Shown here piece after piece: positions 1 through 5,674 of a DNA stretch of 5,674 bases. This stretch comes from a virus. Its lineage: Duplodnaviria; Heunggongvirae; Uroviricota; Caudoviricetes. The stretch lies in the IMG/VR virus record IMGVR_UViG_2534681628_000022; one strand, written 5' to 3'. The notes beneath the pieces were generated by a model that was given only the letters and a program-made list of their open reading frames with translations, ran no database searches and was not told the origin of the DNA. Within the stretch, counting starts at the first letter, position 1. Each line of letters opens with the position of its first letter. A program made the translations under genes and the position numbers.

Positions 1-525
1 TTATACAGCTTTTTTTACATCGTCTTCTCTTGCCGGGAGGTTGTGTTCCTTATTTTCATACTGAGATAAAATCTCTCTCGCTTTTTCCGGCGGTAATGCT
101 TGAAGTGTCTGTAGGGTTCTTTGTTGTTCTACAGTAACCCCCAATGCTTCTAACGCTTTATCTTTGCTAACAATTGTCGGCATAAGACCTTTAATTCCTG
201 CCACACGAATGATCTCAATAGCCGCAGCTTGCTCATCAGGCGTTAAGAAACTCATTGCATAAACTAGCCGCTCATCAACTGTATGATGGCTTGGTACATG
301 TACTGGAGGGGTATCAGAAAATGATGCTCCCTTAATAGCCCTTTGGGTTTCTTCTGGTAAGCTGTTGATGTGATATTCATAAGCCACACCTTTTCCACCA
401 TGACGTTGACGTTTTACCCAATCTTCTGCCACAGCCTTTCTGGTAATGTTAGTCGCCAACTTTGGCACACCAGGCATCCCCTCCAGCTCTTTCGCATTAA
501 ACCATTCTTTGATTTCAAAAGACAT
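1..525 (-). CDS. c: Mu/D108-type phage repressor (c), 174 aa, complete
   Basis: Minus-strand ORF with ATG at 525-523 and TAA at 3-1. The N-terminal ~65 aa are paralogous to the N-terminus of the downstream transposase (shared [20 protein letters not shown]...W..RQ..GKGV). The C-terminal tail (LPPEKAREILSQY...VKKAV) resembles the Mu c repressor C-terminus as I recall it. It is divergent from ner-A-B, as in Mu-family immunity regions. Confidence 0.85.
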   Translation of the reverse strand: MSFEIKEWFNAKELEGMPGVPKLATNITRKAVAEDWVKRQRHGGKGVAYEYHINSLPEETQRAIKGASFSDTPPVHVPSHHTVDERLVYAMSFLTPDEQAAAIEIIRVAGIKGLMPTIVSKDKALEALGVTVEQQRTLQTLQALPPEKAREILSQYENKEHNLPAREDDVKKAV

Positions 526-658
526 TGTTTAAAATCCCAATGATTTCATTAAAGTTGAAAAAATCACTTTAAATTTCAAATAATTAATCAAGATGCTGTA
601 AAATCTTTTCAAATCATCATTGATTCCAAAAAGATTTCACTGTACATTGCTCGATATG
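526..658. promoter_or_regulatory. Divergent operator / early promoter region between repressor and ner; by analogy with Mu also the transposition enhancer
   Basis: 133-bp AT-rich non-coding gap between divergent genes. GATTYCA recurs at 542-548, 622-628 and 633-639; related AAATCAY at 561-567 and 611-617. One IHF-like match AATCAAgatgCTG at 586-598 (one mismatch to WATCAANNNNTTR) follows an A/T tract. Individual operator sites cannot be assigned from sequence alone. Confidence 0.6.
620..648 (+). promoter_or_regulatory. Candidate rightward early promoter (Pe-like)
   Basis: -35 TTGATT (620-625), 17-bp spacer, -10 TACATT (643-648). This would place the transcript start just upstream of the palindrome at 659-688. 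Sequence-only prediction; the -35 overlaps one GATTYCA repeat. Confidence 0.4.
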
Positions 659-688
659 CCGTGAGCTACTTTGCAGAGTAGCTCACGG
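659..688. promoter_or_regulatory. Perfect 12-bp inverted repeat with 6-bp spacer; candidate Ner operator
   Basis: CCGTGAGCTACT (659-670), TTGCAG spacer, AGTAGCTCACGG (677-688); the arms are exact reverse complements. It sits between the predicted early promoter and the ner start codon. No T-run follows, so it is not an intrinsic terminator. Confidence 0.55.
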
Positions 689-712
689 GTGAATCTGAAA
701 GGATTACATGAA

Positions 713-934
713 ATGCATATGAATAAAAGAGCTAACCGCCAAGACTGGCATCGGGCTGACATCGTTGCTGAGTTACGAAAACGCAATATGTCACTGGCCG
801 AATTGGGAAGATCGAATCATCTTTCGTCTTCAACATTAAAAAATGCTTTAGATAAGAGATACCCAAAAGCGGAAAAAATCATTGCAGATGCATTGGGAAT
901 GACACCGCAGGATATCTGGCCATCTCGATACTAG
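713..934 (+). CDS. ner: Ner-family DNA-binding regulator, 73 aa
   Basis: ATG at 713 preceded by AGGA (699-702); stop TAG 932-934. The protein ([34 protein letters not shown]...[14 protein letters not shown]) has the Ner signature DWHRAD...IWPSRY. The ORF track starts at TTG 671, but that lies inside the palindrome and has no RBS, so I prefer 713 (719 is also possible). Confidence 0.85.
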
Positions 935-941
935 GTGCGCT

Positions 942-2930
942 ATGAAAGAGTGGTATACAGCGAAGGAATTGCTTGGTTTTGCTGGTTTGCCAAAGCAAGC
1001 AACTAACATTACACGTAAGGCACAAAGAGAAGGCTGGGTGTTTAGGCAAGTTACAGGTACTAAAGGTGTATCATTTGAATTCAATATCAAATCATTTCCT
1101 GTTGCATTACGTGCTGAAATTTTATTGCAACAAGGAGGTATTGAAACAAGCCAGGGCCGTTTTGAAATCGCCCGCCCCACGCTGGAAGCCCATGATTATG
1201 ATCGTGAGGCACTGTGGAGCAAATGGGATAATGCCAGCGATTCCCAGCGCAGACTTGCTGAAAAATGGTTGCCTGCGGTTCAGGCTGCAGACGAAATGCT
1301 GAACCAGGGGATTTCAACGAAAACGGCATTTGCGACCGTTGCAGGACATTACCAGGTCAGCGCATCCACTTTGCGAGACAAATATTACCAGGTACAGAAG
1401 TTTGCGAAGCCTGACTGGGCGGCTGCGCTTGTTGATGGACGTGGTGCATCCCGTCGCAACGTTCACAAAAGTGAATTTGACGAGGATGCCTGGCAGTTTC
1501 TGATTGCAGATTATCTGCGACCAGAAAAACCCGCCTTCCGCAAATGTTATGAGCGTCTGGAACTGGCAGCCCGCGAGCATGGCTGGAGTATTCCCTCCCG
1601 TGCCACGGCCTTTCGCCGGATTCAGCAACTGGACGAGGCAATGGTTGTTGCCTGTCGTGAAGGTGAACATGCACTGATGCATCTGATACCGGCACAGCAG
1701 CGAACTGTGGAACACCTGGACGCCATGCAGTGGATCAACGGCGACGGTTATCTGCATAACGTCTTTGTACGCTGGTTTAACGGTGATGTGATCCGCCCGA
1801 AAACATGGTTCTGGCAGGATGTGAAAACCCGAAAAATTCTGGGCTGGCGCTGCGATGTGAGCGAGAACATTGATTCAATTCGCCTCTCGTTCATGGATGT
1901 TGTGACTCGCTACGGTATCCCGGAGGATTTTCACATCACCATTGATAACACCCGTGGTGCTGCGAATAAATGGCTGACGGGAGGCGCGCCCAATCGCTAC
2001 CGCTTTAAGGTAAAAGAGGACGATCCAAAGGGACTGTTTTTACTGATGGGCGCGAAAATGCACTGGACAAGCGTTGTTGCTGGTAAAGGCTGGGGCCAGG
2101 CAAAACCTGTTGAACGTGCTTTCGGTGTTGGTGGGCTTGAGGAATACGTTGATAAGCATCCGGCACTGGCTGGCGCATATACGGGGCCAAATCCTCAGGC
2201 AAAACCTGATAACTATGGCGACCGCGCTGTTGATGCAGAGCTGTTTCTGAAAACCCTTGCCGAAGGTGTGGCGATGTTCAATGCCAGAACAGGCCGTGAA
2301 ACAGAAATGTGCGGGGGCAAACTCTCGTTTGATGATGTTTTCGAGCGTGAATACGCCAGAACGATTGTGCGTAAGCCAACCGAAGAACAAAAACGGATGC
2401 TGTTACTGCCTGCCGAGGCGGTGAACGTTTCACGCAAAGGCGAGTTTACGCTTAAAGTTGGCGGCTCCCTTAAAGGCGCAAAAAACGTTTATTACAACAT
2501 GGCATTAATGAATGCCGGCGTGAAAAAAGTTGTGGTCAGGTTTGATCCGCAGCAGCTACACAGCACGGTTTATTGTTACACCCTGGACGGTCGGTTTATC
2601 TGTGAAGCGGAATGTCTGGCACCTGTTGCATTTAATGATGCAGCGGCAGGCCGTGAATATCGCCGCCGCCAGAAACAACTGAAATCTGCAACTAAAGCAG
2701 CCATTAAGGCGCAGAAACAAATGGACGCGCTGGAAGTTGCTGAACTGCTGCCGCAGATAGCCGAACCTGAAGCACCAGAATCACGAATTGTCGGCATTTT
2801 CCGGCCTTCCGGTAATACGGAACGGGTGAAGAATCAGGAGCGTGATGATGAATACGAAACTGAGCGTGATGAATATCTGAATCATTCGCTGGATATTCTG
2901 GAACAGAACAGACGTAAAAAAGCCATTTAA
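942..2930 (+). CDS. A: Mu-family DDE transposase A, 662 aa
   Basis: From about residue 65 onward it matches the MuA sequence as I recall it almost exactly. DDE triad at D268 (1743-1745, NGDGY), D335 (1944-1946, ITIDNTRG) and E391 (2112-2114, KPVERAFG), matching MuA D269/D336/E392 offset by one. C-terminus ends QNRRKKAI, the MuA ClpX recognition tail. SD AGGTG at 929-933. The N-terminal ~65 aa differ from Mu, as described for D108. Confidence 0.97.
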
Positions 2931-2968
2931 TTAACGTTTAAACAAAATTTAATTACGAGGTTATTCAG

Positions 2969-3907
2969 ATGAATATTTCCGATATTCGCGCAGGACTGCG
3001 CACGCTTGTAGAAAATGAAGAAACCACCTTTAAACAAATTGCTCTTGAGAGCGGACTTTCTACCGGAACTATCAGTAGTTTTATCAATGATAAGTACAAC
3101 GGGGATAACGAGCGTGTTTCACAAATGCTGCAACGCTGGCTGGAAAAATATCATGCAGTTGCAGAACTACCTGAACCGCCCCGCTTTGTGGAAACGCAGA
3201 CGGTAAAACAAATCTGGACAAGTATGCGTTTTGCCAGCCTGACTGAAAGTATTGCTGTTGTATGTGGCAATCCTGGTGTGGGCAAAACCGAAGCGGCCCG
3301 TGAATATCGCCGCACCAATAACAATGTCTGGATGATCACCATTACGCCATCCTGTGCCAGCGTTCTGGAATGCCTGACTGAACTGGCGTTTGAGCTGGGA
3401 ATGAATGACGCACCACGCCGTAAAGGGCCACTCTCCCGTGCCCTGCGACGTCGCCTTGAAGGTACACAGGGGCTGGTTATCATCGACGAAGCTGATCATC
3501 TTGGTGCCGAAGTTCTGGAAGAACTCCGCCTGTTACAGGAATCAACCCGCACTGGCCTTGTGCTGATGGGAAATCACCGGGTTTATTCAAATATGACGGG
3601 AGGTAACAGAACGGTTGAATTTGCCCGTCTGTTTTCCCGTATTGCCAAGCGCACTGCAATTAATAAAACAAAAAAAGCCGATGTAAAAGCTATTGCGGAT
3701 GCCTGGCAGATTAACGGCGAAAATGAACTGGAGTTATTACAGCAGATTGCGCAGAAACCAGGTGCGCTTCGCATTCTGAATCATTCACTTCGCCTTGCCG
3801 CCATGACGGCTCACGGTAAAGGTGAGCGTGTTAACGAAGATTATCTGCGTCAGGCTTTCCGTGAATTAGACCTGGACGTTGATATTTCAACGCTGCTGCG
3901 TAATTAA
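2969..3907 (+). CDS. B: Mu B transposition target-DNA activator (AAA+ ATPase), 312 aa
   Basis: Begins MNISDIRAGLRTLVENEETTFKQIAL, matching MuB as recalled. Walker A GNPGVGKT at 3266-3289 (lysine 106), Walker B VIIDEADHL around 3475-3500. SD ACGAGG at 2954-2959. Confidence 0.97.
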   Translation: MNISDIRAGLRTLVENEETTFKQIALESGLSTGTISSFINDKYNGDNERVSQMLQRWLEKYHAVAELPEPPRFVETQTVKQIWTSMRFASLTESIAVVCGNPGVGKTEAAREYRRTNNNVWMITITPSCASVLECLTELAFELGMNDAPRRKGPLSRALRRRLEGTQGLVIIDEADHLGAEVLEELRLLQESTRTGLVLMGNHRVYSNMTGGNRTVEFARLFSRIAKRTAINKTKKADVKAIADAWQINGENELELLQQIAQKPGALRILNHSLRLAAMTAHGKGERVNEDYLRQAFRELDLDVDISTLLRN

Positions 3908-3922
3908 GAAGGAGAAGAAATT

Positions 3923-4150
3923 ATGATGGCCCGAAATATAAAAATGGCAACGGATGCGCAGAACTGGTTACAGGCGCGCGGGAGTCATGTAAATGAATCA
4001 TATCTCGGCGTGGCGCGTCCGATTCTTGAAATCACTTACCCACCGGTGGAACTGGTAAAAAACGCGGTCAGGATTATGGAGCATAAGTCCGGGGTGGCCC
4101 GTTCTGTATGGACGGCCCGTCTTAATGGTTGTCAGATAATCTGGAGGTAG
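3923..4150 (+). CDS. kil: Kil-like small early protein, 75 aa
   Basis: Immediately downstream of B, as kil is in Mu; strong SD GAAGGAG at 3908-3914; size matches Mu Kil (~74 aa). Assignment is by position and size; I cannot verify sequence identity to Mu Kil without a search. Confidence 0.7.
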
Positions 4151-4157
4151 CATTTTA

Positions 4158-4370
4158 ATGATGGTGATAAACATTCACGATAATCTGGGAATCAGTAAGT
4201 TAATCAACCTTGATAATGTCAGTGTAATGGAAACGACTGTTGAGGGTGGTGTTGCTTTTGAATTTATTGATGGTCACAGGCTGGTCGTTCATGTCGGCAA
4301 CCATCATCACGCAGAAAATGTGCTTTGTGAACTTAACAAAATCACAAATGCAACACCCGTTAATCAATAA
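4158..4370 (+). CDS. Hypothetical small early protein, 70 aa
   Basis: GGAGG at 4143-4147 upstream of ATG 4158 (second ATG at 4161). Tightly packed in the early operon, same strand. Contains a His cluster (VVHVGNHHHAENV). No recognisable domain. Confidence 0.6.
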   Translation: MMVINIHDNLGISKLINLDNVSVMETTVEGGVAFEFIDGHRLVVHVGNHHHAENVLCELNKITNATPVNQ

Positions 4371-4381
4371 GGAGAAACAAA

Positions 4382-4645
4382 ATGGCAAAAGTAATTATTG
4401 AAATTAAAAATACAGTGTCTGGAATTAAAGGACGGAATTTGCGCACCAGCATTGCGGTGGACGGTAGTGTGGAGCTGGACGGTGATGAGGGGACACTTGC
4501 TGGCATGGTGGCGTTACTGGTGCTTAATAAAAGCCAGAAAATAATTAATGAGTCAGCCCATGAAGTTATTGAGATTTTGAAAAGCGATGCTGCCATCACC
4601 GGTGGCCGTGTCACTGAAATGACTGTTGGAAAAACACGCCACTGA
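4382..4645 (+). CDS. Hypothetical small early protein, 87 aa
   Basis: Strong SD AAGGAGA at 4369-4375, 6 nt before ATG 4382. Gly/Asp-rich N-terminal half and a hydrophobic stretch GTLAGMVALLVL too short for a confident transmembrane helix. No recognisable domain. Confidence 0.65.
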   Translation: MAKVIIEIKNTVSGIKGRNLRTSIAVDGSVELDGDEGTLAGMVALLVLNKSQKIINESAHEVIEILKSDAAITGGRVTEMTVGKTRH

Positions 4646-4659
4646 AAGGAATTCCGGCA

Positions 4660-5079
4660 ATGAACAACAAAATCCGAAATGAAATTCAGGCATTAATCCG
4701 AATTCAGAAACGCAATAACAACGGCGGTGAATTACGCGAGTTTATTTGCGCCCGAAAAGTTGATGGCTATGGTGAAAAAACTTACCTGATTACTTTCGAC
4801 CATTACAGCATCTGTGCGCGTTATTGCGGCGAAAGCATATCCCGTGCCATTGCATCTGGCGGTGCGTTCAACGTGGATTTATGGGAGTACGTCATGGACC
4901 GGGAATACATCTGCGCATCAGACCAGAAAGTCCGTGAAATGTGGCAGCGTATCTGGCGCGATTACCGGTTAATGGCAAAAGGCTGGGCGCGCTGCTGTTA
5001 TTCCTCGCTTGCCCTGAAAGCGGTTCAGTTATCGCTGCGGCATATTCCGGCACCACTGCACGAGCTTCTGCTGTACTGA
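4660..5079 (+). CDS. Hypothetical early protein, 139 aa, Cys-containing
   Basis: SD AAAGGA at 4645-4650 before ATG 4660. Basic N-terminus (IRIQKRNNNGGELREF). Six Cys (30, 52, 56, 85, 112, 113) and several His, with no canonical zinc-finger spacing. Confidence 0.65.
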   Translation: MNNKIRNEIQALIRIQKRNNNGGELREFICARKVDGYGEKTYLITFDHYSICARYCGESISRAIASGGAFNVDLWEYVMDREYICASDQKVREMWQRIWRDYRLMAKGWARCCYSSLALKAVQLSLRHIPAPLHELLLY

Positions 5080-5379
5080 ATGGTGACTGACATGAAGTGT
5101 AATCGTAAGCGCTGGTCACGCGAAGACCGGGAATTTATCGAAGCCAGTGTCGGGAAAATGACCGTTGAAGAAATGGCGGAAAAACTGAAAGTCGCCACAA
5201 CCGCCCTCCGGGCACATGCCAGAAGGCACGGAATTTCATTGTGTGTATACCGAATCAGTGAACACGACAAATATTTATGTCGTGAACTTTATAAAGAAGG
5301 ACTGGATATTCATGTCATTGCCCGAAAGATGGAATTAAGCAATCGGGCTGTATCCAGCATTGTATACAGCGGATATTAA
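5080..5379 (+). CDS. Hypothetical early protein, 99 aa, with two helix-turn-helix-like segments (putative DNA-binding)
   Basis: ATG 5080 directly abuts the upstream stop (TGAATG at 5077-5082); alternative ATG at 5092 preceded by GGTGA. Segments WSREDREFIEASVGKMTVEEMAEKLKVATTALRAHARRHGIS and LYKEGLDIHVIARKMELSNRAVSSIV have HTH-like periodicity; this is inference from sequence only. Confidence 0.6.
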   Translation: MVTDMKCNRKRWSREDREFIEASVGKMTVEEMAEKLKVATTALRAHARRHGISLCVYRISEHDKYLCRELYKEGLDIHVIARKMELSNRAVSSIVYSGY

Positions 5380-5398
5380 TTAACAGGAGCTTTAATTT

Positions 5399-5674
5399 AT
5401 GGCTAAACCAGCAAAACGTATCAAGAGTGCCGCAGCGGCTTATATGCCACAAAACCGCGATGCGGTGATTACCGATATTAAACGCATCGGGGATTTACAG
5501 CGCGAAGCATCACGTCTGGAAACGGAAATGAATGATGCCATCGCGGAAATTACGGAGAAATTTGCGGCCCGGATTGCACCGATTAAAACCGATATTGAAA
5601 CCCTTTCAAAAGGCGTTCAGGGATGGTGTGAAGCGAACCGCGACGAACTGACGAACGGCGGCAAAGTGAAGACG
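5399..5674 (+). CDS. gam: Gam (Mu-type host-nuclease inhibitor, DNA-end binding), N-terminal 92 codons; truncated by window end
   Basis: ATG at 5399 with SD AGGAG at 5385-5389; the frame stays open to 5674. The translation MAKPAKRIKSAAAAYMPQNRDAVITDIKRIGDLQREASRLETEMNDAIAEITEKFAARIAPIKTDIETLSKGVQGWCEANRDELTNGGKVKT matches the Mu Gam N-terminus as I recall it. It is absent from the ORF track because no stop falls inside the window. Confidence 0.85.
   Translation, partial: MAKPAKRIKSAAAAYMPQNRDAVITDIKRIGDLQREASRLETEMNDAIAEITEKFAARIAPIKTDIETLSKGVQGWCEANRDELTNGGKVKT

Follow-up and report, generated by a model that had tools for sequence, protein, structure and literature searches.

A putative immunity and early-control cassette of the D108 family, SfMu subtype, on a Mu-like transposition backbone

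Introduction

Transposition and immunity in phage Mu are linked through shared DNA. There is homology between repressor and transposase (PMC3820752, which cites Harshey 1985 and Mizuuchi 1986), the Mu enhancer, a target of MuA binding, overlaps the operators O1-O3 (PMC3145075), and the enhancer-binding domain of MuA, I-alpha, contacts enhancer O1-O2 (PMC3562280). The stretch of DNA analysed here, which we call the window, is 5,674 nucleotides of a Caudoviricetes virus (IMG/VR record IMGVR_UViG_2534681628_000022). It carries a repressor gene, c, divergent from ner and the transposition genes A and B. An earlier note proposed that c and A share an N-terminal DNA-binding module, that this module differs from that of Mu while the rest of A and all of B look Mu-like, and that a D108-type specificity cassette had been swapped in. 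The question that this locus raises is whether repressor, control DNA and the start of the transposase belong together as a unit, and where that unit came from.

We consider it highly probable that positions 1-1163 of the window, in a transposable prophage of the Mu family, are an immunity and early-control cassette of the D108 family, SfMu subtype, attached to an A-B backbone like that of Mu and D108, with one domain shared by two proteins and the whole exchanged as a unit. Much of this is familiar ground, and the locus has little weight as a discovery. That c and A share a domain, and that it differs between Mu and D108, has been known since 1986, and the exact allele is present in the 2015 SfMu genome (PMC4406740). 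For D108, the c/A N-terminal similarity is already stated in the title of the 1986 paper by Mizuuchi, Weisberg and Mizuuchi (NAR 14:3813; reference 52 of PMC3820752). What is gained is that the reasoning of the earlier note has been validated, that the junction with the backbone has been placed at base resolution in the I-alpha/I-beta linker, and that public data reveal the cassette as one of at least five alleles co-varying in c and A. This allele set provides context for work on heteroimmunity or enhancer specificity in Mu-like phages.

A DNA-binding domain common to repressor and transposase

The c gene (1..525, minus strand) is an open reading frame of 174 aa, and the transposase A gene (942..2930, plus strand) encodes 662 aa with matches to Pfam PF02316, PF09039, PF02914 and PF09299. 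The N-terminal DNA-binding domain of c, residues 1-57, is encoded at 355..525 on the minus strand, and residues 1-53 of A at 942-1100 on the plus strand; the two peptides quoted in the earlier note are exactly these. Aligned by BLASTP, c 5-57 and A 1-53 are identical at 32 and positive at 39 of 53 positions, with 0 gaps (E = 1e-18). The Smith-Waterman score of the two N-termini is 165, against 23 +/- 4.2 in 2000 shuffles (maximum 47, z = 34). PF02316 (HTH_Tnp_Mu_1), which has a gathering cut-off of 23.3 bits, is found in both c (E = 1.2e-44, 152.4 bits) and A (E = 4.7e-40, 137.5 bits), and the segment ATNITRKA is present and identical in the two proteins of the window. The N-termini of c and A are thus a paralogous DNA-binding domain, as had been proposed. 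Over its length, c also matches PHROG 7148, transcriptional repressor (E = 1.6e-84).

By homology, both N-terminal domains are predicted to adopt a winged helix-turn-helix fold. The reference structures were 1TNS/1TNT for MuA I-alpha and 1G4D/1QPM for the DNA-binding domain of the Mu repressor; phmmer searches with c against solved structures returned 1tns_A (c 7-64, E = 1.4e-7) and 1g4d_A (c 8-62, E = 1.3e-3). AlphaFold2, run on the single sequence of c, gave a model too poor for use (mean pLDDT 43.6), so sequence homology is the sole basis for the fold predicted for c.

Paralogy of this kind could in principle reflect a recent DNA duplication, gene conversion or an assembly artefact rather than selection that has long held both domains to one DNA target, and the two proteins are indeed more alike here (60% identity) than in Mu (~41%, 26/64). 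Their DNA, however, is only 63% identical over the 53 aligned codons and 47% identical at third positions. Of the 32 conserved residues, no more than 18 are encoded by the same codon, and at conserved Arg and Ser positions the codon family has switched (AGA/CGT, CGT/AGG, AGC/TCA). The two genes also occupy opposite strands, with about 400 bp between them, an arrangement that recurs in 89 independent loci. A recent origin is, in our judgement, exceedingly improbable; the third-position identity and the codon-family switches effectively refute it, and on this evidence we rejected conversion of one gene by the other.

Origin of the cassette

The block that is foreign to Mu extends over ~20-1162, from the 3' end of c, which is its left edge, to A codon 74, and has no DNA relation to Mu; there is no DNA match to Mu before position 1122 of the window. 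Across window positions 1-1150, DNA identity is 99.6% to SfMu and 86% to D108. The proteins follow suit. The c repressor is identical to that of SfMu at 174/174 positions, to that of D108 at 156/175 and to that of Mu at 52/196 over the full length (21/69 in a local alignment of the N-terminus). Ner gives 73/73, 72/73 and 37/77 in the same order, and the first 70 residues of A give 70/70, 66/70 and 29/71, the last by local alignment. The backbone tells a different story: residues 75-662 of A are 99.8% identical to Mu A and B matches Mu at 310/312 positions, so that the claim of N-termini unlike Mu on an otherwise Mu-like A and B is borne out. Full-length A is identical at 659/662 positions to SfMu, 656/662 to D108 and 618/663 to Mu, and B at 312/312 to D108 and 304/312 to SfMu.

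The description of the cassette as D108-type stands at the level of the family. The genes stand in the order seen in D108, and the repressor, Ner and the start of A are far closer to D108 than to Mu, with 56/57 identical residues in the c DNA-binding domain, 72/73 in Ner and 69/74 in A(1-74). It does not stand for D108 itself, to which the DNA is 86% identical, whereas the SfMu subtype is at 99.6%. Our data support assignment of the cassette to the D108 family, SfMu subtype. Complete E. coli genomes fall into two classes of cassette identity, with 5 genomes at >=99%, 40 at ~86.5% and 0 between, and the window/SfMu and D108 cassettes are discrete alleles there. A plasmid search recovered no copy of the cassette, and Rfam has no family in the window.

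Comparison with the three reference phages shows how the window is put together. The left end of SfMu (KP010268 / NC_027382; PMC4406740) has the same gene order, the same c and Ner, and near-identical A and cassette DNA; its genome paper (Jakhetia and Verma 2015, PMC4406740) gives c as 89% and Ner as 98% identical to D108. Further downstream the two part company: window 4147-4361 has no SfMu counterpart, and window 4689-5588 reaches just 77-96% identity with SfMu versus 92-100% with Mu and D108. With B at 304/312 as well, the simple reading that the window is SfMu was rejected, as was the reading that it is D108, on the 86% identity of the cassette DNA. The window is a different mosaic from SfMu that carries SfMu's cassette. 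D108 (GQ357916) has the same organisation, the same palindrome arms and GATTTCA repeats in the operator region, but its c differs at 19 of 175 positions, mostly in the linker and C-terminal half. Mu has the same layout of c followed by divergent ner-A-B, repressor and transposase proteins that each carry PF02316, and the same domain boundary, at MuA residue 76/77; its cassette DNA, on the other hand, has no similarity to that of the window, its c, Ner and A N-terminus have diverged, and its most repeated operator 7-mer is CTTTTCA rather than GATTTCA.

The junction with the backbone

Residues 1-74 of A, domain I-alpha (942..1163, plus strand), form the right part of the heterologous cassette in the comparisons with SfMu, D108 and Mu. 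In base-level alignments, Mu similarity resumes across a recombination junction at 1127..1163 on the plus strand, partially from ~1127 (A codon 62) and completely from 1163 (A codon 75; TTTTGAAATCGCC...), which supplies the breakpoint that the earlier note had left to be located. Six sequences (window/SfMu, D108, Mu and types 3, 4 and 5) become identical at this junction; they represent five types, D108 and window/SfMu counting as one, and rejoin at one position. The crystallised MuA core begins at residue 77 (PMC3562280), and the right junction therefore coincides with the boundary of I-alpha. The picture of a swapped cassette holds, its right junction falling sharply on the boundary between I-alpha and I-beta. 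Beyond it, the transposition protein B gene (2969..3907, plus strand; 312 aa; Pfam PF09077 and PF13401) belongs to the backbone and lies outside the cassette.

The control region between c and ner

The intergenic control region between the divergent c and ner genes (526..712) is 70% A+T. By analogy with Mu, we infer that it is the operator and the transpositional enhancer. An operator/enhancer (IAS) of the Mu type sits in the gap between divergent c and ner at about 1 kb from the left end, consists of two binding-site clusters with an IHF site between them, is bound by repressor and by I-alpha of the transposase, and is required for efficient transposition. The intergenic region of the window has this setting, and its SfMu counterpart is found ~850-1040 bp from the left end. 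In the window, two conserved blocks with GATTTCA-like repeats surround a variable centre. In the alignment with D108 the conserved blocks are ~500-552 and ~600-655, and the central ~50 bp between them are unalignable.

GATTTCA occurs at 511, 542 and 633, the last reading GATTCCA in D108, and has 7 copies in the whole window versus 1.4 expected. It is the most repeated operator-region 7-mer in both the window and D108, and the same method returns CTTTTCA in Mu, which we take to be the core of the consensus published for Mu repressor binding. Against local dinucleotide shuffles the 7-mer repetition is not significant, the shuffles reaching the window maximum in 149/300 cases; CTTTTCA of Mu also fails this test (270/300), which lacks power for repeated 7-mers. 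Support for operator sites from repeated motifs is statistically weak. The IHF consensus WATCAANNNNTTR is not enriched (9 matches versus 7.3 expected), and its matches at 574-586 and 586-598, each with one mismatch, are at chance level.

A sigma-70 scan of 480-960 gave 2 matches versus 1.6 expected. The candidate early promoter Pe (TTGATT, 17 nt, TACATT; 620..648, plus strand) was read from the sequence; with 8/12 consensus matches it falls under the threshold of the promoter scan and was unreported by it, and its hexamers are kept in D108. Immediately downstream, a repeat search found an 11-bp perfect inverted repeat with an 8-bp spacer at 659..688 (CCGTGAGCTAC N8 GTAGCTCACGG), presumably the Ner operator in view of D108 Ner footprinting work. 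Its arms are identical in D108 and SfMu, and the D108 spacer differs. The ner gene itself (713..934, plus strand) encodes 73 aa with a match to Pfam PF13693 (HTH_35, E = 1.2e-28).

A model for the cassette, and its specificity

Taken together with the Mu literature, from which the operator-equals-enhancer mechanism is carried over (PMC3145075, PMC3562280), these features suggest how the cassette may work. DNA binding by c and A, the identity of operator and enhancer, and the immunity specificity are put forward by analogy. The repressor would use its PF02316 domain, as its Mu homologue does, on operators between c and ner and would thereby shut the early promoter driving ner-A-B. The transposase would bind the same DNA through I-alpha, as transposition enhancer, during assembly of the transpososome. 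Since the operator DNA would also be the enhancer, bound repressor would block transcription and transposition alike. Two protein domains and their DNA sites would then have to match, which would explain why c, the operator, ner and A up to codon 74 are inherited and exchanged as a unit, through recombination in the conserved I-alpha/I-beta linker.

Is the SfMu subtype a drifted form of the D108 specificity, or is it a third immunity/enhancer specificity that is heteroimmune to Mu and D108 alike? The DNA identity of only 86%, the bimodal distribution in E. coli genomes, the unalignable centre of the operator region, the altered repeat at 633, the five differences from D108 in A(1-74) and the 19 of 175 in c would all fit such a reading. 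Other features tell against it. The c DNA-binding domain keeps 56/57 residues even though third-codon-position identity is only 79%, which points to purifying selection on an unchanged domain, and ATNITRKA, common to c and A, is unchanged between the SfMu and D108 subtypes. Ner and the arms of its palindrome are kept too, and most of the differences in c lie in its linker and C-terminal half. We regard a third specificity as unlikely, and membership of the D108 family as an SfMu subtype remains our preferred reading.

At least five cassette alleles are found on near-identical A cores. With equally little confidence, one may extend the proposal to c-operator-ner-A(1-74) as a multi-allelic exchange unit with at least five alleles in E. 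coli and Shigella, among which the SfMu subtype may be a distinct immunity/enhancer specificity. If it is, such closely spaced natural alleles would be a ready series for mapping co-evolution, in this case of a winged-helix domain and its sites evolving in two proteins simultaneously.

Co-variation and exceptions among relatives

Relatives lend weight to the cassette reading. We surveyed 159 related loci and drew 42 non-redundant c/A pairs from 89 of them. Cognate N-termini have a mean score of 164, versus 103 for non-cognate combinations, and 0 of 10,000 permutations of the 42 pairs reach 164. Within each type, identity between c and A is concentrated in one segment, and that segment is type-specific: ATNITRKA in the window, AGV.Y.A in Mu, S.ISRKA in type 3 and GVHKRA in type 4.

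These results bear on another explanation, in which c and A have only an ancestral fold in common and bind different sites, so that the operator would not double as the enhancer. Type 5 prophages lend it some substance, as their repressor has a Cro/CI-type HTH_3 domain while their A keeps a domain matching PF02316. However, cognate N-termini co-vary strongly across 42 types, with identity concentrated in a segment that changes from type to type, a pattern difficult to account for unless c and A have one DNA target, and the overlap of operator and enhancer has been directly shown in Mu (PMC3145075, PMC3562280). We think it very improbable that only the fold is shared, and return to a common target of c and A as the better account.

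That account does not extend to every relative. The c/A paralogy is absent in 45 of the 111 related loci with enough upstream sequence, some of which have Cro/CI-type repressors, and it is not obligatory in the Mu family. Sharing of the domain is dispensable in some members, as the HTH_3 repressor and PF02316-type A of type 5 indicate. Type 5 prophages, such as locus L112, have the ner-A-B backbone, an A core at 75% identity and a divergent repressor in the same place, but they break the rule of a shared c/A module that holds in the window: their repressor begins with HTH_3 (PF01381, E = 1e-6), which is not paralogous to A I-alpha. The C-terminal segment of the L112 repressor is nevertheless like that of Mu c, with 15/40 identical residues (E = 1e-5).

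Gene organization and the shared N-terminal module

The 5674 bases analyzed here are the early region, at the left end, of a transposable prophage of the Mu family. The repressor gene c lies on the minus strand at 1-525 (174 aa), and its product matches Pfam PF02316, the DNA-binding domain of Mu, at E = 1.2e-44. Positions 526-712 are intergenic and rich in A+T, and are followed by ner (713-934; PF13693), the transposase gene A (942-2930; 662 aa; PF02316, PF09039, PF02914 and PF09299) and B (2969-3907; PF09077 and an AAA domain). Four small early ORFs and a gene resembling kil complete the set, and no Rfam families were found in the window.

An earlier note had proposed that the N-termini of c and A are paralogous. 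The peptides it quoted are encoded exactly where it placed them, and the shared module is confirmed: c residues 5-57 and A residues 1-53 align without gaps, with 32/53 identical and 39/53 positive positions (BLASTP, E = 1e-18), and their local alignment score of 165 compares with 23 ± 4.2 (maximum 47) in 2000 shuffles (z = 34). Two solved structures also match c by sequence, that of MuA Iα (1TNS, E = 1.4e-7) and that of the DNA-binding domain of the Mu repressor (1G4D, E = 1.3e-3); a single-sequence structure model of c (pLDDT 43.6) was unusable.

The DNA beneath this alignment is far less similar. Across the 53 codons, identity is 63% (68%, 74% and 47% at codon positions 1, 2 and 3), the codon is the same for just 18 of the 32 conserved residues, and conserved Arg and Ser residues draw on different codon families. 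This divergence rules out recent gene conversion as the source of the similarity; the third-position identity and the switched codon families point to an ancient likeness maintained at the protein level.

The finding is correct and already known from the literature: a passage in PMC3820752, citing Harshey (1985) and Mizuuchi et al. (1986), describes the Mu repressor as homologous to the transposase, and the title of the 1986 paper already makes this point for D108. Our additions are modest, namely a base-level junction, a formal co-variation test and a count of five or more alleles with that junction in common.

An SfMu-subtype cassette

Megablast against phage records places window 1-1150 at 99.6% identity to Shigella phage SfMu and 86.3% to D108, and finds no Mu similarity before position 1122. 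A sliding comparison in 100-column windows gives 97-100% identity to SfMu and 70-94% to D108 up to ~1174, whereas identity to Mu, at 25-59% as far as ~1074, is no more than alignment noise; past ~1074, all four sequences reach 90-100% identity through A and B. At the protein level, identities to SfMu, D108 and Mu are, respectively, 174/174, 156/175 and 52/196 for c, 73/73, 72/73 and 37/77 for Ner, 659/662, 656/662 and 618/663 for A, and 304/312, 312/312 and 310/312 for B. SfMu c and Ner have themselves been reported as 89% and 98% identical to those of D108, and 24% and 47% to those of Mu (PMC4406740).

The modules are thus unlike Mu while the rest of A (residues 75-662, hereafter the core; 99.8% identical to Mu A) and B are Mu-like, as the earlier note had it. 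Its description of the module as D108-type holds at the level of the family, within which the allele belongs to the SfMu subtype and not to D108 itself. Among complete Escherichia coli genomes, the cassette (window 1-1121) occurs in 5 at ≥99% identity (99.5%) and in 40 at ~86.5%. This distribution is bimodal, with nothing between, as expected if the two subtypes are discrete alleles. Each of these 45 genomes has a single copy, on the chromosome, and none was found on plasmids.

Between the subtypes, the c DNA-binding domain is identical at 56/57 residues with third positions at 79%, and Ner follows the same pattern of a conserved protein over drifting third positions. Purifying selection has held both constant as the DNA drifted, which argues for, and does not prove, one specificity common to both subtypes.

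Cassette boundaries

In base-level alignments, identity to Mu returns in two steps, a partial one at window ~1127 (A codons 62-64; CAAGGA) and a full one at 1163 (TTTTGAAATCGCCCGCCCC..., A codon 75). The published MuA transpososome core begins at residue 77, and Iα, which is absent from that structure, contacts the enhancer O1-O2 in Mu (PMC3562280); the right junction is therefore the Iα/Iβ linker. On the left, comparison among SfMu, D108 and Mu shows ~80% similarity near the c stop and last c codons followed by a drop, in agreement with a conserved c C-terminal tail (...VKKAV). From these two edges, the heterologous block spans roughly window 20-1162, so that the left edges of window and cassette almost coincide.

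Alleles and co-variation

We fetched 159 loci related to the A core from species-representative genomes and IMG/VR. Cores at least 94% identical to that of the window carry at least five N-terminal types: D108/SfMu (…ATNITRKA…); Mu (…AGVIYVA…); type 3 (…SSSAISRKA…; L127 and L088-L090), which is that of Escherichia phage PhiR68_1 (97.3%); type 4 (…MGVHKRA…; L108, L100, L004 from Shigella flexneri and L005 from E. coli), which had no match among 50,697 phage records; and type 5 (MLTHWVTAQEC…; L087, L099 and L102). Six sequences, one per type with D108 and window/SfMu taken separately, reach identical DNA at window ~1163.

A divergent upstream gene whose N-terminus is paralogous to that of its cognate A was found in 89 loci. 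After clustering into 42 types, cognate c/A pairs had a mean score of 164, a value reached by 0/10,000 random re-pairings, versus 103 for non-cognate pairs. In an alignment of the window, D108, Mu and types 3 and 4, within-type c/A identity concentrates in one segment: ATNITRKA in c and A of the window, AGV-Y-A in Mu, S-ISRKA in type 3 and GVHKRA in type 4. This segment probably corresponds to the second helix of the helix-turn-helix in the 1TNS structure. The shared junction and the co-variation across 42 types support the reading of a swapped cassette, refined here to the SfMu subtype of the D108 family.

One type 3 locus, L088 (IMG/VR; A core 99.7%), yielded no paralogous c in its 2.2 kb of upstream DNA (best score 36), whereas a paralogous c is present in other type 3 loci (score 199); in this copy the repressor gene may be deleted or disrupted. 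Two Streptomyces sp. E11-3 scaffolds of 1.5-1.6 kb (L007 and L064) hold fragments of Mu A that have a Mu-type N-terminus and are 100% identical to the A core of the window; their likeliest source is contamination of the assembly by E. coli/Mu DNA.

The control region

Aligned with D108, the control region shows conserved blocks at ~500-552 and ~600-655, with ~50 bp between them unaligned. At 659-688 lie the arms of a perfect 11-bp inverted repeat, 8 bp apart (CCGTGAGCTAC N8 GTAGCTCACGG); D108 has the same arms and a different spacer. On the basis of studies of D108 Ner, this palindrome is the presumed Ner site. Type 3 (L127, within 1807-2054) has ATCAGCTAC N8 GTAGCTGAT, and the common AGCTAC half-site core and 8-bp spacer suggest that Ner specificity is partly common to different cassette types.

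The word GATTTCA occurs 7 times in the window versus 1.4 expected, including at 511, 542 and 633, and is the top repeated 7-mer of the window and D108 control regions. For the other alleles, this search for repeats yields CTTTTCA in Mu, where the word is the core of the published repressor-binding consensus, GTATTCA in type 3 and ATAAACC in type 4. Such a series would fit operator motifs that change along with the protein domains, but it is suggestive only: against local shuffles, the repetition is not significant for the window, and Mu CTTTTCA also fails. A conserved TTGATT-17-TACATT at 620-648, just upstream of the palindrome and below the scan threshold, is a plausible early promoter, and IHF-consensus matches were at chance level only.

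In Mu, operators O1-O3 overlap the enhancer, to which MuA binds (PMC3145075). By homology with Mu, we infer that residues ~5-60 of c would bind the operators of the intergenic region and thereby repress ner-A-B, and that A residues 1-74 would bind the same DNA as an enhancer, so that repressor occupancy would block both ner-A-B transcription and enhancer use by A. Ner would bind the 659-688 palindrome. Because two proteins and their sites must match, the whole segment would be exchanged as a unit, with its junction in the linker.

Relatives without the shared module

Not all relatives have the module. A paralogous divergent c is present in 66 of the 111 related loci that extend 1.3 kb or more upstream of A and absent from the other 45. 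In many of these 45, the repressor is an HTH (XRE-like) protein of ~170-260 aa; a ...FALIPGY... motif in some of them is suggestive of a cleavable repressor of the S24 peptidase type. In the type 5 locus L112, the divergent repressor (1342-1878, minus strand) has an HTH_3 N-terminus of the Cro/CI type (E = 1e-6) and a C-terminal segment resembling Mu c (15/40 identities with window c 86-125, E = 1e-5), while its transposase A (2270-4270) retains a domain matching PF02316. Repressor and transposase of type 5 thus have no common DNA-binding module.

Backbone mosaicism

The window is a mosaic and is identical to none of the records searched. It has its cassette in common with SfMu, but its backbone is unlike that of SfMu, as the identity profile shows: the gp7-like gene (4382-4645) shares 94-97% identity with Mu and SfMu and 42-46% with D108; for region 4689-5588, the values are 92-100% with Mu and D108 and 77-96% with SfMu. 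The plus-strand ORF at 4158-4370 (70 aa; phrog_3375, PHROG 3375, of unknown function) stands where Mu has gp6/E5 and recurs at 93-98% identity in other prophages of E. coli. None of Mu, D108 and SfMu has an equivalent of window 4147-4361 (25-37% in alignment). Matches to segment 4120-4420 occur in 26 complete E. coli genomes, mostly with 93-98% identity; 4147-4361 looks like an ordinary alternative allele of the semi-essential early region.
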